Source of the DNA: Bacteroidota bacterium
GTDB taxonomy: Bacteria; Bacteroidota; Bacteroidia; UBA4408
Length of the DNA stretch: 64,000 nt
Assembly (NCBI GenBank): GCA_016718805.1
Contig: JADKCP010000004.1
Location: 12,284 to 76,283 of the forward strand
Direction of reading: 5' to 3'
Shown here: piece after piece, positions 42,047 to 60,274 of the stretch
Position numbering within the stretch: position 1 is the stretch's first letter
How the letters are laid out: each line of letters starts with the position of its first letter
The notes under the pieces: model-generated
Database searches by the model: none
Told to the model about the DNA's origin: nothing
The model's input: only the letters and a program-made list of their open reading frames with translations
Made by a program: the position numbers and the translations under genes

Positions 42047-42083
42047 AAAAACTGAAACGCCTCGCATTACTGCAAGGCGTTTC
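42047..42083 (-). terminator. Terminator at the end of the dcw/yqeY transcript
   Basis: Stem GAAACGCCT / AGGCGTTTC with an inner GCA/TGC pair, followed by AGTTTTT on the minus strand. Confidence 0.7.
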
Positions 42084-42564: not shown

Positions 42565-44109
42565 TTAATCAACGTTATCGTGTAAAAAAGAATTGTTAGG
42601 CTTTATCTCAGCTGACGACTTATCCTCAGCAGCCGATAAAGTAAATCGAGAAACATTTGAATCGCTTGAGTGAGGCACGTTTGATAAAGTGATGTTTTTT
42701 CGCAAGTAGGCTGGTTGACTTTCCATTTCACTTAATCCACCGGGAGTTTTAAACTTATGACTTAAATTTTTCAAACGGTTTACTCTATCATTTGCCAATC
42801 GCATACGATCGTCGGCCGGGATTGTACTTTCAAACCTCTCTTCAACTTTTTTAGTAATAATAAAAGGCTCATCAACCTTTTCATCATTTGAATTGCTTGC
42901 AGCAGAAGTAACTTCAAATTCGAAGCTTAGATTTGCGTTTTCGTTGCTAGAAGCAACAGCAGTGCTTTCTTCCAATTCTTCCAATTCTTCCAACTGATGA
43001 ACAATTGGCTGTTGAACTGAGTTAGTTTCAACACGAACTTCAGTAGTCTTTTCTATTGTTGTTGTTGGAAGTATATCTCCATCTAACTTGTATTTTGTTA
43101 CTTCAACTTTTTTAGGAATATCGTAACCCAAATCGCTTTTCTTTTTGAAACCAGTAGCTATAATTGTTACGTTTACTCTATCTCCCAATGTTTCATCAAC
43201 TCCATAACCTTGAATTACCTCGGCTGTTTGTCCGGCAGCTTCCTGAATATAATCGGCAATTTCGCCAAATTCATCCATGGTAATTTCTTCGGTACCACAA
43301 GTAATATTTAACAATACATAATTGGCACCTTTAATATTTCCATCGTTCAATAATGGTGATGCCAATGCTTGCTCAACTGCATTGATGGCTCTGTTCTCGC
43401 CGGTTGCGGATGCCGATCCCATAATCGCTCTTCCACTATCTTTTAAAACAGTTTGAATATCTGCAAAATCGGTATTAATGTGTAAGGTAGTTGTGATTAT
43501 ATCGGCAATTCCTTTCGCTGCTGTACTTAAAATATTATCCGCATGACTAAATGCCTCTCCCATTTTTAAGTTACCATATATTTCGCGTAACTTGTCGTTA
43601 TTGATAATAAGCAAGGTGTCTACATTTTTCTCCAATTCTTCCAAACCTGCTTCTGCTTGTTGCTTACGCTTTCTTCCTTCTAATGCAAATGGTACAGTAA
43701 CAATACCAACGGTAAGAATTCCCATTTCTTTGGCTGTACCTGCAATTACAGGAGCTGCACCGGTTCCGGTTCCTCCACCCATACCCGCAGTTACGAAAAC
43801 CATTTTGGTGGTACTTCCTAATATTTCTTTAATTTCTTCAATATTTTCAATTGCTGCATTTTTTCCAACTTCGGGTTGAGAACCTGCACCGCGTCCTTCT
43901 GTTAATGTTGCTCCCAATTGAACCTTGCACGAAACCGGACTGATATCAAGCGCTTGTTGATCGGTGTTGCAAACCATAAAGTCTACTCCCTTTATTCCCA
44001 TACGATACATGTGGTTTACAGCGTTGCTGCCACCTCCACCTACTCCTATTACTTTAATAATTGAGGAGTTGTCTTTTGGTAAGTCGAATTTCATCATTTC
44101 GTTTTGCAT
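42565..44109 (-). CDS. ftsZ: Cell division protein FtsZ
   Basis: IKVIGVGGGGSNAV, tubulin signature GMGGGTGTG, long acidic linker and C-terminal PAYLR. Confidence 0.98.
   Translation of the reverse strand: MQNEMMKFDLPKDNSSIIKVIGVGGGGSNAVNHMYRMGIKGVDFMVCNTDQQALDISPVSCKVQLGATLTEGRGAGSQPEVGKNAAIENIEEIKEILGSTTKMVFVTAGMGGGTGTGAAPVIAGTAKEMGILTVGIVTVPFALEGRKRKQQAEAGLEELEKNVDTLLIINNDKLREIYGNLKMGEAFSHADNILSTAAKGIADIITTTLHINTDFADIQTVLKDSGRAIMGSASATGENRAINAVEQALASPLLNDGNIKGANYVLLNITCGTEEITMDEFGEIADYIQEAAGQTAEVIQGYGVDETLGDRVNVTIIATGFKKKSDLGYDIPKKVEVTKYKLDGDILPTTTIEKTTEVRVETNSVQQPIVHQLEELEELEESTAVASSNENANLSFEFEVTSAASNSNDEKVDEPFIITKKVEERFESTIPADDRMRLANDRVNRLKNLSHKFKTPGGLSEMESQPAYLRKNITLSNVPHSSDSNVSRFTLSAAEDKSSAEIKPNNSFLHDNVD
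42967..42993. repeat. 9-bp tandem repeat x3 in the FtsZ linker
   Basis: TTCTTCCAA x3, encoding LEE-LEE-LEE. Confidence 0.85.
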
Positions 44110-44133
44110 TTTAATTTAGTTTACTAGTGGTTA

Positions 44134-45438
44134 CTATTGAATATCTTCATCAAAAATTCCTTTTGCTTTATTCAGCAAATTGTCAAAAAAACTGCCTTTC
44201 TTTTTTACTGAATGGTCTTTTATTTCTGTATGTGTTGGAGCTGGTGGTGCATCATTGGTAGTTGTATCAGTTGCTTCTTCAACTGGACTAGCAGTAGCCA
44301 GCCCTCGTATTACCAATCCAACTCCGGTTGCATACATTGGGCTAGTAACATCTTCAAGACCTTTGCTCAAGTGTTCGTTAGGATAACCAACACGTGCATC
44401 CATTCCTGTTATATACTCCATTAATTGAGTGATGTGTTTAAGCTGAGCTCCACCACCGGTAATAACAATTCCAGCTATTAACTTCTTTTCGTAACCAGAG
44501 TTTTTTATTTCGTAATAGATGTGTTCAATAATTTCCTCCATGCGAGCTTCAATGATGCTCGCCAAATTTTTTAACGAAATTTCTTTAGGCTCACGACCTC
44601 TTAAACCTGGAATACTTACAATTTCATTATCGAGATTTTCGCTGGCAAGCGCAGAGCCAAATTTTATCTTCAATAATTCGGCTTGATTTTTTATGATGGT
44701 GCATCCCTCTTTGATATCCTCCGTAATAACATTTCCACCAAAAGGAATTACTGCAGTATGGCGAATTATTCCCTCATGAAAAATTGCAATATCGGTTGTA
44801 CCACCTCCAACATCCACCAATACTACTCCAGCCTCTTTCTCTTCATTACTCAATACTGCATCCGCAGAGGCAAGTGGTTCAAGCATTACTTCTTTTGTAG
44901 TTAATCCTGCCTTTGTAACACATTTAATAAGGTTATGAATTGCGGCAACCTGTCCGGTTATGATGTGAAAATTAGCTTCTAATCTTTTTCCAGCCATTCC
45001 AATCGGATCCTTTATGCCCATCTCATTATCCACGATATATTCTTGTGGAAGTACGTGAATAATTTCCTCGCCCGGTAGCATCGCCAATTTGTACATATCT
45101 TCAATTAAGGCATCTACATCTTTCTGACTAATTTCTTCTTCCAAACTATTGCGCATTCGAATACCTCGATGCTGCAAACTTTTTATGTGTTGACCGGCAA
45201 TTCCAACATGTACTTCATTGATAGTAATACCGGATTTACTCTGAGCTTCTTCAACAGCTACTTTTATCGATTGAACAGTTTTTTCAATATTCGAAACAAC
45301 GCCTCTTGAAACGCCAACTGATTCGGTCTTTCCAAGACCAAGAATCTCAATTTTACCAAATTCATTTTTACGCCCAACGAGCGCAACAATTTTTGTGGTA
45401 CCTATATCTAATCCTACAACTATATCGCTGTTTTTCAT
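44134..45438 (-). CDS. ftsA: Cell division protein FtsA
   Basis: GLDIGTTKI, VHVGIAGQHI, LEPLASA, DVGGGTTD and GIVITGGGAQL. Confidence 0.97.
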   Translation of the reverse strand: MKNSDIVVGLDIGTTKIVALVGRKNEFGKIEILGLGKTESVGVSRGVVSNIEKTVQSIKVAVEEAQSKSGITINEVHVGIAGQHIKSLQHRGIRMRNSLEEEISQKDVDALIEDMYKLAMLPGEEIIHVLPQEYIVDNEMGIKDPIGMAGKRLEANFHIITGQVAAIHNLIKCVTKAGLTTKEVMLEPLASADAVLSNEEKEAGVVLVDVGGGTTDIAIFHEGIIRHTAVIPFGGNVITEDIKEGCTIIKNQAELLKIKFGSALASENLDNEIVSIPGLRGREPKEISLKNLASIIEARMEEIIEHIYYEIKNSGYEKKLIAGIVITGGGAQLKHITQLMEYITGMDARVGYPNEHLSKGLEDVTSPMYATGVGLVIRGLATASPVEEATDTTTNDAPPAPTHTEIKDHSVKKKGSFFDNLLNKAKGIFDEDIQ

Positions 45439-45443
45439 TCTAG

Positions 45444-46238
45444 TTATTTTTTGCAAACAACATTATTTTCGAATTTCAGGTTTATTTCAGAATAGGTATT
45501 CCAACCTACTTTGCTTAATCCGCGTGTATAAAAAATGTACAGCTTCTTAAATTTCTTATCTATATCCTGTGTATCTCCGAAAATAATTTTGTGCTTGCCA
45601 ATCGATGGTATCAACTCAATATCAGCACCAACAGTAATTTGCTGAATTTGAGCTTTCCAAAATTCGTTTGAATCAATATATTTCGCAAGGCAATAAAGAC
45701 CAAATAGCTTGTTTTTTTTCAACAGCGAATCGTTAATATCCTGCGATGAAAAATCAAGCAAATTATTGCTTACAAATCGTTCATAAATTTCTCCTGTAAT
45801 TACTGGTACGCGTGCAGTATAGTTCGGCGACCATAACATTAATTTCCCGTTTGAATCTATGTAATAGCTTTCACCTCCAGCGGTAATTACTCGTGCAATG
45901 GGTCTTTTTTGTGTAATATTCACGGTAAGGTCACCGGCAATATTTTCAAAAACCTCGGCATTTGAAATGGCCGGATGGGTATTAAATACTTTCTCCAATT
46001 TATTGATATCAATACTTGCTAATGTTTGTCCATTTAGCTTATCCCTGTTTTCGAGCGCCATTTGAAGAATATCGGCTTTGCTCACAAATTCGTTATCGTC
46101 AGTTTCATCAATGTTTATTTCAACAGAAGAGCAGGTTAGGCGGTTGTGTTCCTTTTTTACAAAACCAAGCAATACAACTGTTACAGCAAGTATTGTTATC
46201 CAACTGAAAACTATAAGTACTTTTTTTATCGACTTCAT
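45444..46238 (-). CDS. ftsQ: Cell division protein FtsQ/DivIB
   Basis: Single N-terminal TM, POTRA-like region (HPAISNAEVF), position between murC and ftsA, and C-terminal INLKFENNVVC. Confidence 0.88.
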   Translation of the reverse strand: MKSIKKVLIVFSWITILAVTVVLLGFVKKEHNRLTCSSVEINIDETDDNEFVSKADILQMALENRDKLNGQTLASIDINKLEKVFNTHPAISNAEVFENIAGDLTVNITQKRPIARVITAGGESYYIDSNGKLMLWSPNYTARVPVITGEIYERFVSNNLLDFSSQDINDSLLKKNKLFGLYCLAKYIDSNEFWKAQIQQITVGADIELIPSIGKHKIIFGDTQDIDKKFKKLYIFYTRGLSKVGWNTYSEINLKFENNVVCKK

Positions 46239-47638
46239 GCTTTCAAATTATATTTTTTTAGTAATGCAATTTCAATAGGTTCAACACATTTATCAATATC
46301 GCCGGCACCCAGCGCTAATATTACATCGGGTGATTTTTGAATAATTGTTTCAACTAAATTTTCTTTACTACAAAGCAATTTATTGTTTGATTGCATGCGC
46401 TGTAACAACATTGCTGAATTCACATTCGGAATGGGTAATTCACGAGCCGGATATATTTCAAGTAAGATGGTGTCGTCTAACAAATCCAAACTTCGGGCAA
46501 ATTCATCTGCAAAATCGCGGGTGCGCGAAAATAAATGCGGTTGAAAAATTCCAAGAATTTTTTTCTGAGGATAAAGTTCCTTCACTGAATTAATACATGC
46601 TTTCAACTCTTCGGGATGATGTGCATAGTCATCAATAAATACAAGCTGTTCTGATTTTATTCGATAATCAAACCTCCGCTTTACTCCACGAAAACTTGCC
46701 AATGCTTGCTTTATTTCTGAAGCAGTAACACTGAATATCTGTGCAGCTGCTACAGCTGCAATTGCGTTTTCTGTATTGTGCTGTCCGGGAAATGAAAAGT
46801 ACAATCCATCAATTGACTCAATTTTACTTTCCAAATCAAACGAATAACTTCCATTATCAATGCGCAAGTTCTTTGCAAAAAAGTCAGCTTGTTGTTGCAA
46901 TGAATAGGTGTATTTTGTAACACCTGTAGAAACAGGAAAATCACTTTCAAGCCCAATTTTAGAAATTAAAAATCCTCCGGATTTAATTTGATTTGAAAAA
47001 AGTTCGAAAGATTGTTTTAAAAATTTATGCTCTGAATATATATCCAAATGGTCAGCATCAATGGAAGTAATAATGGCAATGTCAGGATGTAGTGTCAAAA
47101 AAGAACGGTCATATTCATCCGCTTCAACAACTGTTGGTCCTGGTCCATTTAGTTGTTGAGAAAGTAAAAAATTGGAATTGTAATTCCGTGTTATTCCTCC
47201 CAAAAATGCACTACAATCTTTGTTGGCTGACTTTAGGATATGCGCCAAAATACTTGATGTTGTTGTCTTTCCATGTGTTCCAGCAACAGCCAATGTAAAA
47301 GTATTTTGAGTAATGATTCCCAAAACTTCCGAACGTTTTTTTAGTGAATAACCTTCGTTGATAAAATAATTATATTCTGAATGATCCTTGGGAACTGCCG
47401 GTGTGTAAATGACTAAAACTTTTTCCTTAGCCGTTGATTGTAACCCTTTAAAAAAAGCAATCGAATCGTCAAAATGTACGCGAATTCCTTCTTTTTGCAA
47501 TTCATCGGTTAAGGAAGTAGGTGTTTTGTCGTAGCCACAAACTTCCATATTCAGAGTTTTAAAATAACGCGCAAGTGCACTCATACCGATGCCTCCGATT
47601 CCTAAAAAATAAATTGTTTTAAGGGCGTTAAAATCCAT
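46235..47638 (-). CDS. murC: UDP-N-acetylmuramate--L-alanine ligase
   Basis: FLGIGGIGMSALA, AGTHGKTTT, EADEYDRSF, GVKRRF, DDYAHHP and FQPHLFSRT. Confidence 0.97.
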   Translation of the reverse strand: MDFNALKTIYFLGIGGIGMSALARYFKTLNMEVCGYDKTPTSLTDELQKEGIRVHFDDSIAFFKGLQSTAKEKVLVIYTPAVPKDHSEYNYFINEGYSLKKRSEVLGIITQNTFTLAVAGTHGKTTTSSILAHILKSANKDCSAFLGGITRNYNSNFLLSQQLNGPGPTVVEADEYDRSFLTLHPDIAIITSIDADHLDIYSEHKFLKQSFELFSNQIKSGGFLISKIGLESDFPVSTGVTKYTYSLQQQADFFAKNLRIDNGSYSFDLESKIESIDGLYFSFPGQHNTENAIAAVAAAQIFSVTASEIKQALASFRGVKRRFDYRIKSEQLVFIDDYAHHPEELKACINSVKELYPQKKILGIFQPHLFSRTRDFADEFARSLDLLDDTILLEIYPARELPIPNVNSAMLLQRMQSNNKLLCSKENLVETIIQKSPDVILALGAGDIDKCVEPIEIALLKKYNLKA

Positions 47639-47642
47639 TGAT

Positions 47643-48743
47643 TTAGTTTGAATTTGCAATACTTGCTACTTCACTTGCTATAACTTCAGCTGCATCTCTA
47701 AAGGCCAGTTTCAAAATGTTTTCTTCCAACTTCTTGCGCTTATCATCATTTGCTAATAAATCAAAAAGTGTAGATGGTAAATTTTCACTAACATCTGCAT
47801 CCTTAATCAATATAGCAGCATGATGTGTTACCAAAGCTTGTGCATTACTTGTTTGGTGATCTTCAGCAGCAAAAGGATAAGGTATTAAAATAGCTGCCTT
47901 ATCAACAACACACAACTCTGAAACCGAACTTGCTCCGGCTCGCGAAACCACAACATCAGCAACCGCGTAAGCATAATCCATTTTAGATATAAAATCGTGC
48001 ACCCGTATAGTACAGTTGGTATAATCAGCTGCTGCCTTATCAGCCACTGCCTTAAATGTTGTACCCGTTTGCCAAATCAATTGAACCTTGTTTTTTTCAA
48101 ATTCTGGAAGGAAACTTTTGATGGCTTCGTTAATACTCCTCGCCCCTAAACTTCCACCAATTACAAGCACAGTTTTTTTACTTGCTTCCAATCCAAAAAA
48201 TTCCATTCCACGCTCTCTTTTTCCTGCCAGGTTTTTAATATCCTGACGTACGGGATTACCTGTGAGAATAATTTTTTCCTTTGGAAAATATTTTTCCATT
48301 CCATCGTAAGCAACACAAATACGTTTTGCTTTTTTTGCCAAAAATTTATTGGTAATTCCAGGATAAGAATTTTGTTCTTGAATTAATGCCGGAATACCCA
48401 TTTTTGTAGCGGCATATAACAAAGGTCCGCTTGCAAATCCACCCACTCCTACTACAACATTGGGTTTAAATTCACGAATTATAGTTTTGGATTTTCGAAC
48501 ACTCGAAAATAATTTAAATGGAAATGAAAGATTTTTTAAAATCGATTTGCGTTGTAATCCGCTTATATTTAAACCAACAATTTTATACCCGGCTGCAGGA
48601 ACTTTTTCCATTTCCATCTTACCTTCTGCTCCCACAAATAATATTTCAACTCGATTGTATTTTTCCTTTAAAGCATTCGCTATAGCAATGGCCGGAAAAA
48701 TATGTCCGCCGGTTCCTCCACCGCTTATAATTACCTTAAGCAT
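47643..48743 (-). CDS. murG: UDP-GlcNAc:lipid I GlcNAc transferase
   Basis: GGGTGGHIFP, GVGGFASGP, QEQNSYPG, GNPVR, GGSLGA and EDHQTSNA. Confidence 0.97.
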   Translation of the reverse strand: MLKVIISGGGTGGHIFPAIAIANALKEKYNRVEILFVGAEGKMEMEKVPAAGYKIVGLNISGLQRKSILKNLSFPFKLFSSVRKSKTIIREFKPNVVVGVGGFASGPLLYAATKMGIPALIQEQNSYPGITNKFLAKKAKRICVAYDGMEKYFPKEKIILTGNPVRQDIKNLAGKRERGMEFFGLEASKKTVLVIGGSLGARSINEAIKSFLPEFEKNKVQLIWQTGTTFKAVADKAAADYTNCTIRVHDFISKMDYAYAVADVVVSRAGASSVSELCVVDKAAILIPYPFAAEDHQTSNAQALVTHHAAILIKDADVSENLPSTLFDLLANDDKRKKLEENILKLAFRDAAEVIASEVASIANSN

Positions 48744-49890
48744 GCGCAGGTTCTCCTTTCGTTTCTGCTTCGATTTCGCGACTTACACTTAACATGATAC
48801 CTATGGCGATACTCGAAAAAATTACGGATGTTCCTCCAGCGCTAACCATGGGTAAGGGTTGACCAGTGACGGGAAATAAGTGAACTGCTACTCCCATATT
48901 TATCATGGCTTGAAATACCAACATAAAACACAAACCTATTGACAATAAACTTCCAAAAGTCTTTGGACTTTTGGTTGCAATTCGTGTAGCCCGGAAGAGC
49001 AAAATCATGTATAAAAAAATAACCAAAAACCCGCCAAGTATTGAACCATATTCTTCAATAATAATTGCGTAGATAAAATCGGATGATGCTTGCGGTAAAA
49101 AATTTCGTTGTGTACTTTTCCCGGGGCCTTTACCAATTGGTCCACCGGTTGCTATTGCAATCATTGCTTGCTCGGCCTGGTAATTTTCATCACTGTCTCC
49201 GCTAACAAAACTTTCTAATCGAGTTTTCCAAGTTTCAACACGATTATTAATATGCGGAAAAGTAAAAACAAGGAGTATAAACAATCCCAGAAACACAATT
49301 CCACTTGCAACTAAAAGTAAAATATATTTAATGTTTACTCTACCAATAAACATCAGTACCAAACAGGTAACAAACAAGACTGCAGCGGTAGAAAAATTAG
49401 CCGGTAGTATTAAACCGCAAATAATTAAAATTGGTGCAACAATCGGAACAAACGCTTCTTTAAAATCCTTTATTTGATCCTGTTTCATTGAAAGCAACCT
49501 GGCAACATATACAACCAATGCCAACTTAGCAAAATCGCTTGTTTGAAATGTAAATCCAATTCCGGGAATTGCAATCCATCTACTTGCCTCACCGGCACTA
49601 ACTCCTTTTACCAAAGTAAAAAGCAATAATGGCGCTGCAAGAAACACCGCTATTTGAGAGCCTCTTGAATAATAAGTGTATTTAATTAAATGCGTAAAAT
49701 AAATGCAGAGTAGCGATAAAGCAACAAAACCAATTTGCTTAAAAAGAAAAAACTCGGTATTTCCTCCTTTGTATTTATAGGCTAAAGTTCCGGAAGCACT
49801 GTAAACAACCAATACCGAAAATATGGAGAGCATTACAGCTACTACCCATATTACTTTATCACCGCTTAATTTACTTAAAACTTTGTTCAC
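48736..49890 (-). CDS. ftsW: SEDS peptidoglycan polymerase FtsW
   Basis: ASRWI, FQTSDFAK, SDFIYAIIIEEYG and GQPLPMVSAGGTS. Confidence 0.93.
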   Translation of the reverse strand: MNKVLSKLSGDKVIWVVAVMLSIFSVLVVYSASGTLAYKYKGGNTEFFLFKQIGFVALSLLCIYFTHLIKYTYYSRGSQIAVFLAAPLLLFTLVKGVSAGEASRWIAIPGIGFTFQTSDFAKLALVVYVARLLSMKQDQIKDFKEAFVPIVAPILIICGLILPANFSTAAVLFVTCLVLMFIGRVNIKYILLLVASGIVFLGLFILLVFTFPHINNRVETWKTRLESFVSGDSDENYQAEQAMIAIATGGPIGKGPGKSTQRNFLPQASSDFIYAIIIEEYGSILGGFLVIFLYMILLFRATRIATKSPKTFGSLLSIGLCFMLVFQAMINMGVAVHLFPVTGQPLPMVSAGGTSVIFSSIAIGIMLSVSREIEAETKGEPAHA

Positions 49891-49901
49891 TTTTAGTTGA
49901 A

Positions 49902-50447
49902 TTATTTAATTCGTTGATCGAAAAACTCACGAACAGAATTCTTAAAACTATTGCCTCGTACTTCATAATTTTCATACAAGTCGTAACTTGGACAAGCAGG
50001 TGAAAACAATACTACGTCACCCTTTTTTGCCCAGTGATAACTGTATTCAACAGCTTCCTTCATTTCTTTTGCATCCACAATAAGCGGCACAATATTTTGG
50101 TATTGAAAAATTTTAAATAAGGTGCTGTTATCTTTACCTAGACAAATAATTGCCTTTACTTTTTCACGCATTATTTCTGCAAGTACTCCATAATCGTTTC
50201 CTTTATCAACACCACCAACAATCCAAATAATGGGCTTCTCCATTTTTTCCAAAGCAAGCCATGTACTATCTAAATCGGTGGATATACTATCGTTGATATA
50301 TTCAACATAATTAAATTCACCTACCTTTTCTAATCGGTGTTCAGTGCTATTTAACTCTGTATAATTTTCACGTTCAATTTCCTTGCGCATTTGCAAAAGT
50401 CTGCGCATGTATTCAATTGGATTGGTAGTTATCTTTTTTGATTCCAT
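49902..50447 (-). CDS. Stand-alone MurD C-terminal (ligand-binding) domain paralog
   Basis: About 55-57% identical by my manual alignment to the last ~137 aa of the adjacent MurD (EHRLE, INDS, WIVGGVDKGNDY, SPAC.S, ENYE.RG). It has no P-loop and no N-terminal domain. Confidence 0.85.
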   Translation of the reverse strand: MESKKITTNPIEYMRRLLQMRKEIERENYTELNSTEHRLEKVGEFNYVEYINDSISTDLDSTWLALEKMEKPIIWIVGGVDKGNDYGVLAEIMREKVKAIICLGKDNSTLFKIFQYQNIVPLIVDAKEMKEAVEYSYHWAKKGDVVLFSPACPSYDLYENYEVRGNSFKNSVREFFDQRIK

Positions 50448-50468
50448 TGTTAAAAATTAAGGTGGATA

Positions 50469-51821
50469 TTATAATGATTTCACATCTCTTTTAAATTGAC
50501 GACCACGGTCTTCGTAGTTTTCAAACAAATCAAAACTGCTGCAAGCCGGCGATAACAATACGGTATCGCCTTTTTTAGCAAGTTTGTAAGAACGCTTTAC
50601 AGCTTCTTCGGAAGAATGAGCGTCTACAATTATCTCAACTAAATCGGCAAAAGCATTGTGAATTTTTTCGTTTTCCTTACCAAGGCAAACAATTGCTTTC
50701 ACTTTATCTTTAACCAATTCGCGTAACATTGAATAGTCATTTCCTTTATCAACTCCTCCTACTATCCACACGGTAGGATTCGTCATACTTTCCAATGCAT
50801 ACCATGTTGAATTCACATTCGTTGCCTTACTGTCGTTAATAAATTCGATGCCATGCACCTTAGTTACAAACTCAAGTCGATGTTCGATGTTTTCAAAATC
50901 GGCAAGACTTTCGCGCACAATTTCATTGCGGATATCCAAAACTTTGGCAACAATACCTGCGGCCATTGAATTGTAAATGTTGTGCTTGCCTTGTAAGGCT
51001 AAACTGTGTATTGACATAGAGAAGGGTTTATTGTTTATATCCAGGATTAATTCTGTTTCGTTTAAATAGGCACCATTTTCAACCTTTTCGTAAATAGAAA
51101 TAGGAATTAATTGTGCAGTAATTTTTTGGGATGCAAGGTTCGATTGTGTAATTGTATCGTCTTTGCAATAAATAAATACATCTTGTTGCAATTGATTTTG
51201 TGTGATGCGAAATTTTGAATCCACATAATTTTGCAATTCATATTCGTAGCGGTCGAGATGATCGGGAGTTATGTTTAACAACACAGCTAAATTGATACGC
51301 GTTTTAAACATGCCATCTAATTGAAAACTGCTTAATTCCAAAACATAATAATCGAAGTTTGATTCTGCCACTTGTCTTGCAAAACTTTTTCCGACATTTC
51401 CCGCCAATCCAACATTTAATCCGGCCTTTGTAAGAATATGATATGTAAGCAATGTTGTTGTTGTTTTTCCGTTTGTTCCGGTGATACCGATTAATGTAGC
51501 ATGTGTGTGACGTGCAGCAAATTCAATTTCAGATATTACTGGTTTGCCTTTTTTCAGAATGGCTTGTACTAGTTCTGCTTTGTCAGGAATACCGGGACTT
51601 TTAACGACTTCATCCGCTGCTAAAATTCGTTTTGTTGTATGTTGATTTTCTTCAAACTCAATTTGATGGCTCAACAATTCCTTTTTATACTTCTCTTTAA
51701 TACTGCCTTGATCAGAAACAAAAACGTCAAAACCCATTTTTACGCCCAATACAGCAGTACCAACGCCGCTTTCTCCTGCCCCTAAAACCACTAATCGTTG
51801 TTTATTGCTTGTTGCTTTCAT
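50469..51821 (-). CDS. murD: UDP-MurNAc-L-Ala--D-Glu ligase
   Basis: LGAGESG, KSPGIP, GTNGKTTT, ELSSFQL, DHLDRY, NDSKATN, GGVDKGND and SPACSSFD. Confidence 0.97.
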   Translation of the reverse strand: MKATSNKQRLVVLGAGESGVGTAVLGVKMGFDVFVSDQGSIKEKYKKELLSHQIEFEENQHTTKRILAADEVVKSPGIPDKAELVQAILKKGKPVISEIEFAARHTHATLIGITGTNGKTTTTLLTYHILTKAGLNVGLAGNVGKSFARQVAESNFDYYVLELSSFQLDGMFKTRINLAVLLNITPDHLDRYEYELQNYVDSKFRITQNQLQQDVFIYCKDDTITQSNLASQKITAQLIPISIYEKVENGAYLNETELILDINNKPFSMSIHSLALQGKHNIYNSMAAGIVAKVLDIRNEIVRESLADFENIEHRLEFVTKVHGIEFINDSKATNVNSTWYALESMTNPTVWIVGGVDKGNDYSMLRELVKDKVKAIVCLGKENEKIHNAFADLVEIIVDAHSSEEAVKRSYKLAKKGDTVLLSPACSSFDLFENYEDRGRQFKRDVKSL

Positions 51822-51827
51822 CTCTTA

Positions 51828-53084
51828 TTAGCGAAGTTTTAGTGTAACAAAAGTGAGTATGGCAAGCATCACACCTACAATCCAAAAACGAGTAACGATT
51901 TTCGATTCATGAAATCCCAATTTTTGATAATGATGATGTAAGGGTGACATCTTAAAAATTCTTCGCCCTTCACCATATTTCTTTTTGGTGTATTTGAAGT
52001 AACTAACTTGCATCACCACTGATAAATTCTCCACCAAAAAAATTCCACATAAGATTGGAATCAGTAATTCTTTACGAATTGCCAATGCAAAAACTGCTAT
52101 AATTCCACCTAAGGTGAGACTTCCTGTATCGCCCATAAACACTTGTGCCGGATAAGAATTGTACCACATAAATCCTACACAGGCACCAATGAATGCTCCC
52201 ATAAATATTACCAACTCGCCGGTACTTGGTATATACATTATGTTGAGGTAATTGGCAAAAATCATGTTACCGGATACATAAGCGAAAATGAGCAAAGTAG
52301 CGCCAATGATGGCTGATGTACCAGTGGCTAAACCGTCAAGACCGTCGGTTAAGTTTGCACCATTGCTTACTGAGGTAATAATTAAAATTACAATTGGTAT
52401 AAAAACCAACCAGCCCCATTTTTCATAATCATCTCCAATAAATGAAATCAGTTTTGAATAATTAAACTCATTATTCTTCACAAAAGGAATGGTGGTTTTG
52501 AGCGATTTAGAAGGGGTTGTTGAGTAGTGTGGCAAATTGCTCGCATTCACATCGCGGGCAAACATATCGTTCGCCATTTCAACTTCCAGTGAGTTGTATA
52601 CCTTTTCCTTTATAACAACATTGCTATTAAAATACAACGTAATTCCAACAATTAATCCTAAACCTATTTGTCCGATTACTTTAAATTTTCCCTTTAAGCC
52701 TTCCTTATCCTTTTTAAAAACCTTTATATAATCATCCAAAAATCCAATTGTACCAAGCCAAATTGTTGTACACAGCATGAGTATGATGTATACGTTATGA
52801 AGTTTTGCAAACAAAAGCGTGGGAATTAAAATGGCGGCTATAATTATTAATCCTCCCATTGTTGGTGTTCCTTGCTTCTGATTTTGACCTTCCAGTCCTA
52901 AGTTTCGGATTGTTTCACCAACTTGTTTTTTACGGATGTATTCAATAATTCGTCTTCCAAAAATTAGAGAAATTAATAGCGAAGTGATAATTGCCATAGC
53001 TGCCCTGAAAGAGATATACTGAAAAACTCCCGAACCAGGTAAGTCAAAATGTTTGTGCAAATAATCAAATAAGTAATAAAGCAT
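51828..53084 (-). CDS. mraY: Phospho-MurNAc-pentapeptide transferase
   Basis: [27 protein letters not shown] and PLHHHY. Confidence 0.97.
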
Positions 53085-53096
53085 TTCCCTTAATTT

Positions 53097-54557
53097 TTAG
53101 TCTAATAATTCAAATGAATTTTTCAATTCCTCCATATCGTCAAATGGATATTTTACACCTTTAATCTCTTGGTATTTCTCGTGTCCCTTTCCGGCCACCA
53201 ATATGATATCGCCAGGTTGAGCCAAGGAGCATGCTGTTTTAATAGCTTCGCGTCTGTCGAGTATTGCCAACGATTTTTTATTGTAAGGAGGAAGAATTCC
53301 CTTTTTCATTTGCTCAATAATTTCATCCGGATTTTCTGAACGTGGATTATCGCTTGTAAGAATTACCTTATCGCTTAAATCGCATGCAATTTTTGCCATC
53401 AACGGACGTTTCAAAGCATCTCTGTCGCCTCCGCATCCAACTAAGGTGATCACCTTTTCGTTGCCGGTTCGAATGTCATTAATGGTAGTTAGTACATTTT
53501 TCAATGCATCCGGCGTATGAGCGTAATCAACTATTCCCGTTATTTTATTTGCCGAACGCAAATATTGAAACCTTCCTTCAACAGCATTCAAAGTACTCAA
53601 TGCAGTTAGCACATTGGTTGAATCTTCTTTCAATAACACTCCAATGCTGTATGCAAGGAGTAAATTGTAAGCATTAAAGGTGCCAATCAACTTTGAATAA
53701 AATTCCTTTCCATCAATTGTGAGCAACAATCCCGAAAACTGATTTTCTATAATGCGGCATTTAAAATCAGCCATAGAATTTATGGCGTATGTTTTTTTAA
53801 TAGCACGCGTATTTTGCAACATCACTTCACCGTTCTTGTCATCTTTGTTTACCAAGGCAAATGCTGTGGCTGGCAGGTTATCAAAAAACCCTTTTTTTGC
53901 TTTAATGTAATTGTCAAATGTTTTATGATAATCTAAATGATCGTGTGTAATATTGGTAAATGCAGCTCCTGCAAATTCAAGTGCAGTAATTCGATGTTGC
54001 ACAACCGCATGTGAACTTACTTCCATAAAGCAATGTGTACAGCCCTTTTCAACCATCCTTTGCAATAGCTGATTAAGTTGCAATGCATCAGGAGTAGTGT
54101 GTGTCGCTGCTACTTGTTCACCATCAATATAGTTGCAAACTGTGCTCAGCATTCCGGTTTTATATCCGAGCAGCTTAAATAAATTATAGAGTAATGTAAC
54201 CGATGTTGTTTTTCCGTTGGTTCCTGTTACTCCAACGAGTTTAAGTTTTTCAGAAGGATTCTCGTAAAAGTTTGCTGCTACTGTTGCAAGCGCTTCACTT
54301 GTATTTTTAACTTTTATATAGGTTACTTTTTCATCTTTTTGCTCAGGTAGTTCCTCACACAAAATTGCAATAGCTCCTGTTTGTATTGCCTTTTGAATAA
54401 ATGTATGACCATCTGAAACTTCACCTCTAATTGCTACAAAAAATGAAAAACGCTCTACTTTGCGCGAATCGAAACAAATAGATTCAATCGCAACGTTGGT
54501 ACTCCCAACCACCTCTTCAATACGAGTTTTATAAAGTATGTCGCGTAATAATTTCAT
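53097..54557 (-). CDS. murE: UDP-MurNAc-Ala-Glu--meso-DAP ligase
   Basis: GTNGKTT, HTTPD, MEVSSH, DHLDYH, DYAHTPDA, the DAP-specificity motif DNPR and GKGHE. Confidence 0.97.
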   Translation of the reverse strand: MKLLRDILYKTRIEEVVGSTNVAIESICFDSRKVERFSFFVAIRGEVSDGHTFIQKAIQTGAIAILCEELPEQKDEKVTYIKVKNTSEALATVAANFYENPSEKLKLVGVTGTNGKTTSVTLLYNLFKLLGYKTGMLSTVCNYIDGEQVAATHTTPDALQLNQLLQRMVEKGCTHCFMEVSSHAVVQHRITALEFAGAAFTNITHDHLDYHKTFDNYIKAKKGFFDNLPATAFALVNKDDKNGEVMLQNTRAIKKTYAINSMADFKCRIIENQFSGLLLTIDGKEFYSKLIGTFNAYNLLLAYSIGVLLKEDSTNVLTALSTLNAVEGRFQYLRSANKITGIVDYAHTPDALKNVLTTINDIRTGNEKVITLVGCGGDRDALKRPLMAKIACDLSDKVILTSDNPRSENPDEIIEQMKKGILPPYNKKSLAILDRREAIKTACSLAQPGDIILVAGKGHEKYQEIKGVKYPFDDMEELKNSFELLD

Positions 54558-56666
54558 TTACGATAATTCTATAATTACTTGTGTTCCTTTATTCACTTTG
54601 GTTCCAGCTTCAGGTAATTGTTTGGTAACCGTTCCCTTGCCCGAAATTTTCACCGACACTCCTGCATTTTCTAACATATAAATTGCGTCCTTCAAACCCA
54701 TTCCGATAACATTGGGAATTCCATTTTTGCTTGTTGATCTTGCTGCCAGTGCAATACCTTTGGCATCGCTACTTGCTGTTACCCATTCAGCGTTTCCGCT
54801 TTTATCCTTTTCACCAAGTTTTAACTTATTTGCAACAAGGGTTAAATCAGCTTTATTACCAGCTTTTGCAATAGGTGTTTTAAGTGTATGGCTAGTATCG
54901 GATTGTAGTTCCTTGTGAATCTCAGTGCTTGTTGCATATACTTTATCTGCAATTTCTCGGAATACCGGACCAGCAACATCGTTTCCATAATACACTTTTT
55001 GTGTCGGCGCATTCACTACTACAATGCAGGTATATTTAGGGTTTGATGCAGGAAAGTATCCGACTAAGGATGCTTGATAACTCACTTTTCCTTGATATTT
55101 ATAACCGTATGCTTTGTTATAAATTTGAGCAGTTCCGGTTTTTGCAGCAATTTTATAATCGGCCGAACGCAGGTTAGTTGCGGTTCCTCGTTCAACTACT
55201 CCTTCGAGCATTTTTTTTGCATTGCGAATGGTTTCTTTAGAACAAATAGATGGATTCAATACCGTTGTTTGAAATGATTTAACCAGCTCGCCTCTTTTTC
55301 GAATTTCCTTTACAAAAATTGGTTTCACCATTTTGCCATCATTTGCAACAGCATTATAAAAAGTAAGTATTTGCAATGGCGTCATGCGCGATTCATAACC
55401 AGTTGACATTACTGGTAAAGTAACGGGGCTCCAAGTTTTATCCTTTGTATTTTTAATATAGGGCAAACCTTCTCCGGTGATGTCAAGATTTAATGGATTA
55501 TTTAAACCCATTTTATACAAGCGGTCAATAAATTTTTGCGGTGTTTTAGCATAGTATTTAGAAATTACTTTCGCTATTCCCACATTGGAAGATTTTTCAA
55601 AGACTTCCTGTAAAGTAATTTTTCCATAGCCACCTTCGTGCGAATCTCTAATATGATGATCATAAAAAACCACATCCCCATCTTCGGTATCAACCATCTC
55701 ATCCAAATTAGTATATCCATCTTCCATAGCTGCTATCAAGGAAACTAGTTTAAATGTTGAGCCGGGGTCGGTACTTTCGCCAATTACATAATTGTAGGTT
55801 TCGGCGTAATTCGTTGAATCAATTTTTTTAAGATTCACGATGGCTCTAATTTCTCCGGTTGAAACTTCCATTAACGCTGCACAACCATGATCAGCTTGTT
55901 GTTTACGCAATTGTGTTAACAAAGCGTGATGTGCCACATCTTGAATATTTACATCAATGGTTGTATAAATATCACTACCATCTGTTGCTTCAATATCATC
56001 TTCCTTATGCACAGGAGCCCAGTTATTACCTGAAATTTTTTGCATCAAGCGCTTGCCTGAAACACCTTTTAAATAATTATTAAATGAACCTTCAATTCCA
56101 ACAGGCTTAATTCCTTCGCGCTGATATCCAAGTGTTCGAGCAGCTAATTCGCGGAATGGCATTTCTCTGCGGTTATTTTGAATACACATTAAACCACCTT
56201 TGTATTTTCCCATTCGGAAAAGTGGAAATGTGCGCAAGGTTTTTACATCTGAATAACTAACTCCTTTTTGTAAAAAAAGATAACGTTCCTTTTGCTTGCG
56301 TGCTCGAACTAATAATCGTTTGTATTCTTTCTGGCTGCGATCCTGAAATAACTCTGATAAGCACAATGCAAGCGAATCAACATTCTTAGCAAATAATTTA
56401 TTTGTTATAGGGCCGGCGCATACGTCCATTCTAATTTCATATATCGGAACAGAAGTAGCTAGTAAGCTTCCATCGTTACTAAAAACATTCCCTCTTGAAG
56501 CTTCAATATTAAAATAAGTTGTAGTAAGCTTTTGTGCCTTTTCTTTCCACTCTTTACCTTGAACAAATTGAATTTTTACAACGCGTACAACAATGAGGAG
56601 CGCAAAAATGCTCATCAATAGATATACGAGGTAAATCCTCCACAATATGTCCTTTCTGGTTTCCAC
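54558..56666 (-). CDS. ftsI: Class B penicillin-binding protein FtsI with C-terminal PASTA domain
   Basis: SxxK in GSTFK, SxN in KSSN, KTG in AKTGTAQ, and PASTA PNVIGMGLKDA. Confidence 0.93.
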   Translation of the reverse strand: METRKDILWRIYLVYLLMSIFALLIVVRVVKIQFVQGKEWKEKAQKLTTTYFNIEASRGNVFSNDGSLLATSVPIYEIRMDVCAGPITNKLFAKNVDSLALCLSELFQDRSQKEYKRLLVRARKQKERYLFLQKGVSYSDVKTLRTFPLFRMGKYKGGLMCIQNNRREMPFRELAARTLGYQREGIKPVGIEGSFNNYLKGVSGKRLMQKISGNNWAPVHKEDDIEATDGSDIYTTIDVNIQDVAHHALLTQLRKQQADHGCAALMEVSTGEIRAIVNLKKIDSTNYAETYNYVIGESTDPGSTFKLVSLIAAMEDGYTNLDEMVDTEDGDVVFYDHHIRDSHEGGYGKITLQEVFEKSSNVGIAKVISKYYAKTPQKFIDRLYKMGLNNPLNLDITGEGLPYIKNTKDKTWSPVTLPVMSTGYESRMTPLQILTFYNAVANDGKMVKPIFVKEIRKRGELVKSFQTTVLNPSICSKETIRNAKKMLEGVVERGTATNLRSADYKIAAKTGTAQIYNKAYGYKYQGKVSYQASLVGYFPASNPKYTCIVVVNAPTQKVYYGNDVAGPVFREIADKVYATSTEIHKELQSDTSHTLKTPIAKAGNKADLTLVANKLKLGEKDKSGNAEWVTASSDAKGIALAARSTSKNGIPNVIGMGLKDAIYMLENAGVSVKISGKGTVTKQLPEAGTKVNKGTQVIIELS

Positions 56667-57137
56667 TTACTTTACTTCTGCTATGTTGTTTGAATTTTGA
56701 GCTGCATCTTCCTGCACTTTCGCATCTTTTTCGATAATTATTTTTTTAGGCGCAACAACTGATTCTTTAATTCCTAAATTCATTTCTGCAGCTGCACGTG
56801 CTACTTCCGATTGTTTACTGATAAACATTAAATCTGATTTTGATGTGATGTATTCAGATCGTAATTCCTTTATTTCATTAGTTACAGTATTCGTTTTTCG
56901 CATTATTTTTTCGGCATAATACGTATTCGATATGTACACAATAGCGACAAATACTAAGAAAAACACAAAAGGAACTTGCTTTACCACACTAGCATTGGTA
57001 AGAAAATTTCCGTTAATAAAATCTATTAGGGGACGATCCTTTTTGCCAGATTTTTTAGGGGAGCTTGCCGCTGATGAAGTAGATACTTCATCAATTATTT
57101 CGTTTTCATTACCAATTGGCTCCTTTATTTCTGCCAT
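56667..57137 (-). CDS. ftsL: FtsL-like cell division protein (Bacteroidota type)
   Basis: One TM followed by a coiled coil (EIKELRSEYI..KS.LM..S.QS.V), located between rsmH and ftsI. Confidence 0.8.
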   Translation of the reverse strand: MAEIKEPIGNENEIIDEVSTSSAASSPKKSGKKDRPLIDFINGNFLTNASVVKQVPFVFFLVFVAIVYISNTYYAEKIMRKTNTVTNEIKELRSEYITSKSDLMFISKQSEVARAAAEMNLGIKESVVAPKKIIIEKDAKVQEDAAQNSNNIAEVK

Positions 57138-57147
57138 TAAATTTGAA

Positions 57148-58044
57148 TTATAATTTTTCTGCTATTCTTAATTTTGCACTTCTTGATCTTGTATTTTGTT
57201 CCATTTCTGCGGCTCCCGGAATAATTGGTTTTTTCGTAATCAGTTCAAACGGAACTAAACTATTTCCAAAAAAATCTTTCTCCACTTCTCCTTCAAACTT
57301 TCCTTTCCTCATAAAATGCTTTACCAATCTGTCTTCCAAAGAGTGATAAGAAATCACTACCAATCGTCCACCTTTATCGAGCACTTCTAAACTTTGTACC
57401 AACAACTCCTTTAAAACTTGCATTTCATTATTTACTTCAATCCGCAAAGCCTGAAAAACCTGCGCTAAATATTGATTCTCTTTACCTCTTGTTACCAAAG
57501 GAGCAATTATATTTTTCAACTCACTTACCTTGTTAATAGGTTTCAACTTTCGCTCATGTACAATTCGGTAAGCAAGTTTTGAGGCATTCGGAATTTCACC
57601 ATACACTTTAAAAATTTCCTTCAATTGCTCTTCCGAAAATTCATTCAATACCATCTTTGCTGACTTTTGCGAATTGGTATCCATACGCATATCAAGCTCA
57701 GCTTCAAAGCGGGTTGAAAAACCTCGCTCGGCAGTATCAAACTGATGACTTGAAACTCCTAAGTCGGCCAAAATTCCGTTTACCGGTAAAGCATTGTGCA
57801 GGCGCAAATAATTTTTGAGGTACTTAAAATTTTGTCTCACAAAAATTAATTTGCTTGTATCAGCTTTATTTTTCTCAGCTGCTTCATCCTGATCAAAAGC
57901 TATTAATCGCCCACCTTTAAGTTGGGCAAGTATTGCTTTTGAATGCCCTCCACCGCCATAGGTAACATCCACATAAGTACCATTGGGGTCGATTTTCAAA
58001 CCTTCAATACATTCATTTAAAAGAACGGGTTGGTGGTACATCAT
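57148..58044 (-). CDS. rsmH: 16S rRNA m4C1402 methyltransferase
   Basis: YHQPVLL, DVTYGGGGHS, DLGVSSHQFD, FQALRIEVN, SYHSLEDR and RSRSAKLR. Confidence 0.97.
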   Translation of the reverse strand: MMYHQPVLLNECIEGLKIDPNGTYVDVTYGGGGHSKAILAQLKGGRLIAFDQDEAAEKNKADTSKLIFVRQNFKYLKNYLRLHNALPVNGILADLGVSSHQFDTAERGFSTRFEAELDMRMDTNSQKSAKMVLNEFSEEQLKEIFKVYGEIPNASKLAYRIVHERKLKPINKVSELKNIIAPLVTRGKENQYLAQVFQALRIEVNNEMQVLKELLVQSLEVLDKGGRLVVISYHSLEDRLVKHFMRKGKFEGEVEKDFFGNSLVPFELITKKPIIPGAAEMEQNTRSRSAKLRIAEKL

Positions 58045-58512
58045 TTAATTTTCTTGCTGAGAATTACCACCCATTACTTTCTCTGCAAGCTGTGCAAATG
58101 CATCAGGATCGTAGCCTTTCATAACATCCTTATAGGCTTTGTCTGACCATATTTCAATTTTATTTAAGCTCGATGTGAGCACTATATCTTTTTTAATTTT
58201 TGCAAACTCAGCCAAATGTTTTGGTAGCAAAAAACGATTTGTTGCATCCAATTCAACCGTGCTAGCCCCATTCGTATACTGACGAATAAAATCGTCGTTC
58301 TCTTTGCGAAATCGGTTGAGCTTACTCAAATCGCGCACTATTTCTTCCCAAGCATCCATCGGATACAGCACCAAACATTTTTGAAAAACACTTCGGTTTA
58401 TCACAAATTTTTCCCGCAACTCAGTCGGAAATTGTTTATACAACCCGGCCGGCATCATCACTCTTCCCTTCACATCCATCGTACACTGAAATTCGCCTAT
58501 GTAGTTCGTCAT
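58045..58512 (-). CDS. mraZ: dcw cluster transcriptional repressor MraZ
   Basis: D.KGRV..P and D...RF.LP AbrB-like repeats, plus EIW. The start is MTNYIGEF, because the longer ORF-track start runs through the operator repeats. Confidence 0.95.
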   Translation of the reverse strand: MTNYIGEFQCTMDVKGRVMMPAGLYKQFPTELREKFVINRSVFQKCLVLYPMDAWEEIVRDLSKLNRFRKENDDFIRQYTNGASTVELDATNRFLLPKHLAEFAKIKKDIVLTSSLNKIEIWSDKAYKDVMKGYDPDAFAQLAEKVMGGNSQQEN

Positions 58513-58550
58513 TACTGGTGTTTCGCTTCGAGCGGTAAATTTAAAACAAT

Positions 58551-58583
58551 TTTTACCACATTTTGACACTTTTTACCACTTTT
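58551..58583 (-). promoter_or_regulatory. MraZ-binding direct repeats
   Basis: The minus strand reads aGTGGtaaaa aGTGTcaaaa tGTGGtaaaa, a 10-bp period typical of MraZ boxes, 38 nt upstream of mraZ. Confidence 0.85.
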
Positions 58584-58846: not shown

Positions 58847-60274
58847 CTATCTTGCAACTATTAGTTTTTTGGTAACTTCTATTCTTCCATAGTTGCTTAC
58901 TATGCTGCATAAATAAGTTCCGGTGATAAATTGTGAAGTGTTAATTACCTCCCTCGAATCTTGACCAGCTACTTGCTTTTTGTAAATAATTTGACCTTGT
59001 TCGTTAGAGATTACTAAGAAGTTAGTTGCATTGCCAATGTAATGTATACCTGTGTAACTGCTCGAAGGATTAGGATAAATATGTAAATAATTTTCCTCCT
59101 TTTTATGTTGACTAATTGCAGTTGAAACATTTCCTAATGTGTCTGTTTTTAGATAGTAAACGCCTAATTGAGTTCCATTATTTCGAATCTGTCTTCCTGC
59201 TGCAAAAAATGTTTCATCAGGTAAAGTAAAAAAGTGTTCAATTCGTGTATCAACTGAATCACCATAATACTTGGTCCAAACAGAATCGAATTGAGCATTG
59301 TACTTTGTTGCAAATGCTAAAGGATATTGGTTCCCAGGCAGGGTAACATAGCCCCCAAAATAAAATCCACCTGAAACTGTTGATGTGATTCTAGGAACAT
59401 ACACATTGGAAGAAGGGGGTATATTAATGGAAGTGCGCTTCTCAATTAATAGGTTTCCCAATGAATCGTTTAGTGAAACGCCAAGCCCAAACTGCATAGT
59501 ATTCCCATAAGCGCCTTGTGATAGTATTTTTTTATCGGGCAACAAAAATGAATTTCCAAAGTTTGAATGAACCGAATCCAACTGCAATTTCACAGATGAA
59601 ATAGTATCCAGACTGTCATTGATTATTAGCGCTCTGCATTGATTGTAAATTGGAATTGGAAAGGATTGGTAGGTTAACAATAGAAAGTTCGAATCGTATT
59701 TAAATAAATTTCCGGAATAGGGATAAGATGTTCCAAAATTTGATGACTTAATAATTGAACCCAAACTATCACAAATAATAACTATGTTGCCCGGATAAGC
59801 TGATGAAATCATCAAATGCTTATTTGCTAAAAATTGTATACCGGTGATGTTTATGGCCCCACCGCTGTATATTGATGTAGGAACAATAAATTGAGAAAGT
59901 ACATTCCCGCTGCTGCTATCCACTCGCATCACCCAAGTATCTAGTTCACCATTAGCATTATAAACTGTTCCTACACCAACATAATCTCCTTCTGGTGACA
60001 GCGCAATTTTTCCAAAAATAGCTCTATCCGGAAAATTAACTCGTGCTACCCAAATTGTATCACCAATACTGTTAATTCTAACAATACATTCAGTTGAAGG
60101 TGAACCATTATTGTATCCACCTTCTAAACCAATAAGATATCCACCATTATTGTCACTCACACATCTAATCCCATATTCATTAATAGTTGGATACCAATTT
60201 TCGAAAGAAATCTGAGCGGACGAATAATTTGTATAGATTACGACACAAAAAATTACTATTATAATTTTTTTCAT
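58847..60274 (-). CDS. T9SS cargo with a probable beta-propeller
   Basis: Signal ending SA|Q, repeats NSIGDTIW / DSLGSII / NDSLGNLL / DSVWTKYYG and CTD IYPNPS...GTYLCSI...KKLIV. Confidence 0.8.
   Translation of the reverse strand: MKKIIIVIFCVVIYTNYSSAQISFENWYPTINEYGIRCVSDNNGGYLIGLEGGYNNGSPSTECIVRINSIGDTIWVARVNFPDRAIFGKIALSPEGDYVGVGTVYNANGELDTWVMRVDSSSGNVLSQFIVPTSIYSGGAINITGIQFLANKHLMISSAYPGNIVIICDSLGSIIKSSNFGTSYPYSGNLFKYDSNFLLLTYQSFPIPIYNQCRALIINDSLDTISSVKLQLDSVHSNFGNSFLLPDKKILSQGAYGNTMQFGLGVSLNDSLGNLLIEKRTSINIPPSSNVYVPRITSTVSGGFYFGGYVTLPGNQYPLAFATKYNAQFDSVWTKYYGDSVDTRIEHFFTLPDETFFAAGRQIRNNGTQLGVYYLKTDTLGNVSTAISQHKKEENYLHIYPNPSSSYTGIHYIGNATNFLVISNEQGQIIYKKQVAGQDSREVINTSQFITGTYLCSIVSNYGRIEVTKKLIVAR

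Follow-up and report, generated by a model that had tools for sequence, protein, structure and literature searches.

The window analysed here (64,000 nucleotides (nt) of Bacteroidota bacterium contig JADKCP010000004.1, assembly GCA_016718805.1) carries in its dcw operon a separate gene whose product corresponds to the C-terminal domain (domain 3) of MurD. The gene, here called S, had been noticed in an earlier reading of the DNA (the original prediction) as an intact open reading frame (ORF) of 181 amino acids (aa), 21 nt past murD and 11 nt ahead of ftsW, and our coordinates agree (Table 1). The murD-ftsW junction had also been said to be normally direct. Indeed, the two genes share 1 nt in E. 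coli, and in a survey of Bacteroidota (each GTDB species represented by one genome; the 80 best out of at least 600 matches, a sample biased toward close relatives) 57 of the 80 loci had a gap of 125 nt or less without an ORF. A terminator scan found no terminator-like site in the murD-S spacer; the sole strong terminator-like hairpin of the operon lies at 42054-42083, past ftsZ.

Table 1. Position of S, its sequence motifs and its surroundings in the window.
Feature	Position	Strand	Description
S (stand-alone MurD domain-3 paralogue)	49902..50447	-	ATG start, 181 aa, N-terminal helix and complete Mur_ligase_C fold
N-terminal helix of S, residues 10-34	50346..50420	-	PIEYMRRLLQMRKEIERENYTELNS; from alignments and model (pLDDT 63-73)
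HRLE motif (E. coli H301, R302, E304)	50328..50339	-	residue map
Ligand loop NDSISTDLD (MurD NDSKATNVN)	50268..50294	-	residue map and type-II site analysis
GGVDKGN loop with K348 equivalent	50196..50216	-	12/12 core S, 82/82 MurD
SPACPSYD loop	49980..50003	-	S415 kept; A414P and F416Y S-specific
murD	50469..51821	-	full length, 450 aa; N, M and C domains; above TIGR01087 cutoff
murD-S spacer	50448..50468	-	21 nt, TATCCACCTTAATTTTTAACA
S-ftsW spacer	49891..49901	-	11 nt, TTCAACTAAAA
ftsW (FTSW_RODA_SPOVE)	48736..49890	-	384 aa; start 11 nt past S stop
dcw operon	42565..58569	-	mraZ-rsmH-ftsL-ftsI(PASTA)-murE-mraY-murD-S-ftsW-murG-murC-ftsQ-like-ftsA-ftsZ; gene calls by Pfam

S is a domain 3 without the rest of the enzyme. 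BLASTP aligned its residues 16-175 with residues 293-450 of the neighbouring MurD (84 of 160 identities, 53%; E 7e-59), the resemblance to the MurD C-terminal part that had been read from the sequence by hand, and the N-terminus of S corresponds to MurD residue about 278-293. The only Pfam domain in S is Mur_ligase_C (PF02875; 44.9 bits against a cutoff of 28.4), matched over positions 1-127 of the 127-position model. Pfam detected neither MurD_N nor Mur_ligase_M, in line with the predicted lack of a P-loop and a UDP-MurNAc-binding domain, and the part of MurD that holds the P-loop (K115), H183 and the carbamylated K198 is missing. The murD profile TIGR01087 scored 149.1 bits with S, below its cutoff of 211.95, and matched at positions 299-440 only (the last 142), whereas the neighbouring true MurD scored 395.7 bits. 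By score, by the absence of the N-terminal and ATP-binding domains and by its residues at 319 and 322, S falls outside the MurD ligase equivalog.

An AlphaFold model of S (predicted local distance difference test score, pLDDT, 79) has the Rossmann-like alpha/beta fold of Mur ligase domain 3. The top Foldseek matches of the model were MurD domain 3 (E 1e-12, TMq about 0.7), with E-values of 1e-12 to 1e-10 and a root-mean-square deviation of about 2 Å over about 144 residues for 7U35, 3LK7 and 1E0D. Compared with MurD domain 3 (E. coli residues 299-437; PDB 1E0D, 2UAG, 3LK7 and 7U35), S has the same fold and order of elements, contains the HRxE, NDS, GGxDKG, SPAC and RG motifs and is about 53% identical to the host domain, but it lacks domains 1 and 2 and hence any UDP-MurNAc-L-Ala or ATP site. 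Its N-terminal helix is homologous to the MurD helix that precedes domain 3, and the LLxxRKE core of this helix is common to S, MurD and the G family described below. Isolated E. coli MurD domain 3 (301-437) is a stable, well-behaved folded protein (PMC4652230). MurT (of MurT-GatD), FolC/FPGS, CapB and cyanophycin synthetase appeared as distant C-domain matches to S at Foldseek ranks 34-50; these enzymes keep the central ATP-binding domain, and S is closer to MurD (E 1e-12 vs 1e-5).

Ligand-site residues were compared between 82 true Bacteroidota MurDs and 12 core S orthologues, with E. coli numbering checked on MG1655 MurD. H301, R302, N316, D317, S318, G344, G345, K348, S415, R425 and G426 are present in 82/82 MurDs and 12/12 core S. 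E304, also found in 82/82 MurDs, is Gln in one core S. The residue map bears out the predicted retention of H301, R302, D317, T321, K348, S415 and R425 in the window protein, with the F422 equivalent a Tyr in both S and the host MurD, as well as the change from NDSKATN to NDSISTD. The D-Glu-site equivalents in the window S, by sequence position, are T57, K82, S154, Y155 and Y161. In MurD, the D-Glu carboxylates are held by T321, K348, S415 and F422, and K348 contacts the alpha-carboxylate (PMC3527612). Across the core orthologues T321 is less strictly kept (T in seven, C in three, S in two; T in all 82 MurDs).

K319, which contacts the ATP gamma-phosphate and UDP-MurNAc-L-Ala (UMA) in closed MurD (PMC4652230), is Lys in 82/82 MurDs and variable in the 12 core S (R5, K3, I2, Q1, M1), with Ile (I55) in the window protein. 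Four further positions have changed in a fixed manner: A320 (80/82 MurDs) is Ser in 12/12 core S, N322 (82/82) is Asp in 12/12 (D58 in the window S), N324 (82/82; G324 in E. coli) is Asp in 11 and Glu in one, and F416 (82/82; Leu in E. coli) is Tyr in 12/12. The derived states A320S, N322D, N324D and F416Y occur in only 0-1 of the 82 MurDs, and all four changes fall in two loops lining the ligand site. S also has a one-residue insertion with newly constrained Phe and Pro (residues 111 and 121), and constraint is relaxed at F296, L409 and L436, which pack on domain 2 in MurD. As an S-family signature we used S320/D322/D324/Y416 together with a length of 170-190 aa, Mur_ligase_C as the only domain and a place between murD and ftsW, and the window protein has each of these features. 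Judged from these residues, the pattern in S is one of a dicarboxylate pocket kept and re-tuned and a catalytic-cleft contact released, which is what a binding protein with no ATP site left to close on should show. S alone cannot be a ligase, going by its sequence, because the N-terminal and ATP-binding domains are absent and K319 is variable.

The gene is widespread and constrained. The exact 181-aa protein lies on 56 public contigs (NCBI, JGI, ENA and Logan), of which the longest exceeds 1 Mb, and homology search returned S orthologues at 98, 88, 77, 71, 61 and about 50% identity. The order murD-S-ftsW is kept down to 47-53% identity in independent JGI, ENA, Logan and NCBI assemblies. Every orthologue with sufficient upstream sequence sits between a full-length murD (445-452 aa) and ftsW; contig P0006 begins just before S, and only its ftsW side is readable. 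S and the 3' end of murD share 60% nucleotide identity, and 39.7% at third codon positions, which together with the 56 contigs rules out an assembly artefact or a recent tandem duplication. Comparison of the window with L041 ('Bacteroidia bacterium AMR_MDS_5553', the window's species or a very close relative, 99% identity) gave a non-synonymous rate (dN) of 0.002 and a synonymous rate (dS) of 0.64 for S, with a dN/dS ratio (omega) of 0.004 (0.005 for the MurD C-domain itself); at greater distance, against L004, omega was about 0.11. Short-range dN was lowest in the MurD C-domain (0.017), intermediate in S (0.077) and highest in the MurD N-terminal and central (N+M) domains (0.136). These ratios rule out a spacer ORF held only by translational coupling. 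The original prediction had taken divergence without a stop or frameshift as a sign of selection for a non-catalytic role, and the omega values of 0.004-0.11, the position conserved across the clade, the absent ligase domains and the variable K319 all support this. S is enzyme-derived, has lost the catalytic parts and is under purifying selection, the features of a pseudoenzyme paralogue.

The prediction had further described S as an insertion. A recent one does not fit the data, as each S lies at much the same distance (median 53%) from every one of the 82 sampled C-domains of Bacteroidota MurDs, and the MurD of its own genome ranks only 10th to 54th by closeness (21st of 82 for the window S). 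Within the window's subclade, the branching of S mirrors that of MurD. Neighbour-joining bootstrap values were 100% for this subclade (window-L004) and 70% for the 12-member core; deep nodes were weak (26-38%; 38% for the clade of all true MurDs). Taken together, these comparisons indicate that S is an old partial murD duplication, vertically inherited inside the dcw operon. A single origin is claimed for the core S clade only, as judged from its 70% bootstrap and the four shared derived residues. Gene conversion with murD, or repeated recent duplication, is out for the core clade, where S is no closer to its own MurD. Two further candidates were rejected: an apparent large stand-alone family of 182-aa and 165-aa matches consisted of true MurDs cut at contig starts and called from an internal Met, and the match of Wandonia haliotis (L015) to residues 1-173 was its full-length MurD, with no extra gene there. 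MurD itself is unevenly conserved in the window clade (vs L041, L001, L002 and L003), where domain 3 differs by 1.4-4% of amino acids and the N+M domains by 17-24%. The C/NM distance ratio here is 0.09-0.18, whereas Bacteroidota that lack the extra gene have a median of 0.67; as dS is saturated, this frozen domain 3 is not due to recent recombination.

A search for Mur_ligase_C-only genes between murD and ftsW in the Bacteroidota survey returned a BLAST-detectable S at 7 of the 80 loci (L018, L022, L023, L040, L041, L048 and L060). All of these except L041 are divergent copies that lack various of the H301, R302, D317, K348 and S415 equivalents while keeping the slot and the fold; among the states seen are D, E, H or V in place of K348, G or A in place of S415, and N, C, D or S in place of R302. 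A320S and N322D are common to several divergent copies and the core clade, which favours one origin of S, a point that the tree cannot settle. The L060 locus (L060:4468-5535; CAZWQX010000023.1, 'uncultured Cryomorphaceae bacterium') carries tandem S genes of 172 and 174 aa, with about 31-34% identity to MurD domain 3, in a murD-ftsW gap of 1058 nt. At one locus (L031:4756-5352; CAXBJE010000049.1, 'uncultured Owenweeksia sp.'), a 927-nt gap holds a 187-aa ORF with a lipoprotein-like N-terminus that is unrelated to MurD, S or G (E >1 vs both hidden Markov models (HMMs)).

The remaining 15 of the 80 loci have an ORF of 113-201 aa without BLAST similarity to MurD, here called G or G-like (L014, L016, L017, L024, L025, L027, L033-L036, L039, L045, L050, L079 and L083). 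They belong to Fluviicola, Crocinitomicaceae, Vicingus and related metagenome-assembled genomes. The main G group, of 150-160 aa, comprises 249 clusters in a set of 5.8 billion proteins, all annotated 'hypothetical', and G has neither a Pfam domain nor an NCBIfam match. All 15 ORFs gave a match, if a weak one, to the S-family HMM (16 sequences searched, E 5e-9 to about 0.3), and profile-profile comparison of G with S gave an hhalign probability of 87-91% (E 1e-6), collinear over 131-142 columns. In the model of G (pLDDT 87), helices and strands follow one another as they do in that of S, and six of its eight best PDB matches by Foldseek, the top four included, are C-domains of the Mur ligase family (Mpl, MurF, MurD, FolC, pMurE and MurC), with marginal E-values near 1e-3 to 4e-2. 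S and G share the slot, the strand, the LLxxRKE helix, P72 and W75, and overall charge and isoelectric point do not differ among S, the MurD C-domain and G. Unlike S, G has lost all MurD ligand residues, which are replaced by an invariant aromatic-rich motif, GKLWGMDVFSW...SFPFPVIWIG...VLLFTSSGE, on the corresponding face. The window S reads EKVGEFNYVEYINDS / MEKPIIWIVGG / VVLFSPACPSYD at these positions, without the aromatic motifs of G; it is related to G (hhalign 91%) and not a member of it. Profiles, predicted fold and gene position suggest that G derives from a Mur-ligase C-domain and that S and G are related. Four short slot ORFs of 113-132 aa (L014:4487-4885, L083:4516-4857, L036:4478-4843 and L039:4467-4844) are without the N-terminal helix and fit the S-family HMM (E 5e-9 to 5e-5) better than the main G group, and might be S-G intermediates.

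Both genes are tightly placed with respect to ftsW. Across relatives, the S stop lies 0-25 nt before the ftsW start or overlaps it, and in all contexts read for G, its stop codon and the ftsW start share 4 nt. S is linked to ftsW in transcription and probably in translation too. At L011 (positions 720-6075 of a Logan SRR25400529 contig), murD and G are parted by about 4.9 kb, and G still stands 4 nt upstream of ftsW. The DNA in between codes for an unknown protein of 360 aa, a DUF4249 protein and a TonB-dependent receptor of 778 aa.

The explanation that we prefer, and that we give a roughly even chance of being right, is that S is a functional, non-catalytic paralogue of MurD domain 3 that serves the division and precursor machinery as a binding-based accessory, adaptor or regulatory protein. 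Such a protein would work by binding and not by catalysis, as a subunit of the peptidoglycan-precursor and division machinery, and would bind through the side that MurD domain 3 turns to domain 2 and the substrates. Its partner would most likely be the product of a neighbouring gene, namely FtsW, MurD or another Mur enzyme. In the window lineage, binding may respond to D-Glu, UDP-MurNAc-L-Ala-D-Glu or a related ligand, because the D-Glu-type pocket is still conserved there. Since divergent S and G keep the gene, the fold and the coupling without the pocket, the family-wide role is more likely protein-protein interaction than D-Glu recognition. Among the roles offered by the original prediction (amino-acid sensor, dominant-negative or assembly partner of the Mur ligases, and specificity module in trans), that of an assembly partner appears to fit best. 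Several points weigh against this explanation. The N-terminal cytoplasmic tail of FtsW in the window has only about 12 residues, which offers little to bind; strict invariance of the pocket in core S would also fit a pure small-molecule-binding role; and the homology of S and G is read from hhalign at 87-91%, Foldseek at about 1e-3 and synteny, with no strong sequence similarity. S and G could be separate duplications with different roles, because the deep tree nodes are poorly supported (38%).

S might instead be a free-standing small-molecule binder, that is, a sensor or buffer of D-Glu, UDP-MurNAc-dipeptide or another dicarboxylate, acting without a dedicated protein partner or signalling to glutamate racemase or MurD by sequestering ligand. 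The D-Glu carboxylate holders K348 and S415 (with backbone contacts at 416/422; PMC3527612) are kept in 12/12 core S, H301, R302, D317 and R425 are likewise invariant, and four fixed changes confined to the ligand loops look like a change of specificity and not decay. However, T321 is kept in only 7/12, the affinity of open, apo MurD for D-Glu stays low until domain 3 closes on domains 1-2 after ATP hydrolysis (PMC4652230), and pocket-less relatives still keep the gene. The D-Glu sensor that had been proposed is weakened by these points and fails as a role for the whole family, and we regard a free-standing binder as unlikely. Still less likely is a regulator directed at MurD, in which S, with the native domain 3 in its open position, would occupy the cleft of domains 1-2, or else would pair with domain 3, and so throttle or gate D-Glu addition in a dominant-negative-like manner. 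S is a near-complete mimic of domain 3, preceding helix included; with K319 lost and two more Asp beside what was the phosphate site, a docked complex would be inactive; MigC provides an example of a protein that inhibits MurD; and MurD domain 3 is unusually frozen in the window subclade (0.09-0.18 vs 0.67). Yet the tethered native domain would out-compete a free copy, the G homologue at L011 stays with ftsW and not with murD, and the hint from the frozen domain comes from one small clade with non-independent pairs.

Catalysis in trans, with S as an alternative amino-acid-binding domain for MurD domains 1-2 or another C-domain-less ligase and a consequent change in the amino acid added, seems improbable and is the least supported of the roles proposed earlier. 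The specificity of Mur ligases resides largely in domain 3, and the pocket of S is retained but altered, both as this idea would have it. Against it, K319, a residue of the closed active site present in 82/82 MurDs, is Ile in the window S and variable in the family, and MurD, MurE and MurC of the window are all full length, with no N+M-only ligase at the locus itself. A functionless remnant, its frame kept only by translational coupling to ftsW, or an assembly artefact, is hardly credible. The stop close to or overlapping the ftsW start in all relatives, and FtsW levels that are normally well below those of Mur enzymes (PMC10214165), are what such a remnant could draw on; the constrained amino-acid sequence (omega 0.004-0.11) with its invariant motifs, the same arrangement in dozens of independent assemblies, contigs of over 1 Mb among them, and the 40% DNA difference from murD speak against it.

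A wider form of the adaptor explanation, which we offer tentatively and consider less likely than not, would treat S and G as one ancient, previously unrecognised division and precursor component of non-Flavobacteriaceae Flavobacteriales. Derived from MurD domain 3 and produced in a constant ratio to FtsW, such an adaptor would tie the cytoplasmic Mur pathway (or the amount of its D-Glu-containing intermediate) to the septal glycan polymerase. The window form would represent a ligand-responsive early stage, and G the end state, of a transition from enzyme domain to adaptor.

Non-catalytic regulators and truncated paralogues offer analogies for such a protein. HisZ is a catalytically dead HisRS paralogue that regulates HisG. 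MigC is a protein regulator that acts on MurD (PMC12208494), and truncated FtsZ paralogues are reported in Hyphomicrobiales (bioRxiv 10.1101/2025.09.29.679267). The likeness of these three is one of concept only, a non-catalytic protein or truncated paralogue tuning the parent pathway; their folds and lineages are unrelated to S, and a regulatory role of S would follow only by analogy. Closer at hand are the natural MurD-FtsW fusions of Proteobacteria and Actinobacteria (PMC10214165), which likewise place MurD domain 3 directly ahead of FtsW and in a fixed ratio with it. They differ in that a whole, active MurD is covalently joined to FtsW, whereas S is a separate, extra domain 3 beside an intact MurD. 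The MurE C-domain takes part in Mur-Mur contacts (PMC10214165). Together with the fusions, these contacts set an example of a domain 3 that sits at FtsW or within a Mur complex.

The organisation of the soluble Mur enzymes, and their connection to the membrane steps and the divisome, has so far been approached mainly through gene order and natural fusions (PMC10214165). S, as a separate, conserved copy of the MurD substrate-binding domain beside ftsW, would give a natural handle on this organisation, and the series from pocket-retaining S to pocket-less G in the same slot would be a clear case of an enzyme domain turned non-catalytic. In current annotation S goes as 'MurD' at JGI and as 'hypothetical protein' at NCBI. 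Neither Pfam nor NCBIfam has a model specific to S or G, with S below the MurD cutoff, and full-text literature searches brought up no account of a MurD C-domain protein that stands alone.

The surroundings of S are those of a conserved dcw operon without mobile-element context, and PADLOC gave no defence-system match. Rfam and tRNA searches had no match anywhere in the window, and a sigma-70 promoter scan, uninformative for Bacteroidota, found fewer sites than in shuffled sequence. The window is AT-rich (GC 36%) and encodes many proteins with type IX secretion sorting domains, a typical Bacteroidota trait. Three large ones lie at 31778-41979, just downstream of ftsZ: two paralogous DUF7948 proteins of 1067 and 1412 aa on the minus strand and an 858-aa SprB-repeat protein on the plus strand. 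More Por_Secre_tail proteins are found at 7568-10306, 15878-17596 and 58847-62218. An ORF of 383 aa at 1059-2210 (+), beside a group-1 glycosyltransferase, matched no Pfam family at E 1e-5 or better. Within the operon, the ftsQ-position ORF between murC and ftsA (45444-46238, minus strand, 264 aa) had no Pfam match at E 1e-4 or better, and those of related loci (263-279 aa) are likewise without a recorded Pfam family. The FtsI-type class B penicillin-binding protein (54558-56666, minus strand, 702 aa) ends in a C-terminal PASTA domain (residues 650-702, 55.9 bits), which is also present on its homologue in L006 and L007.

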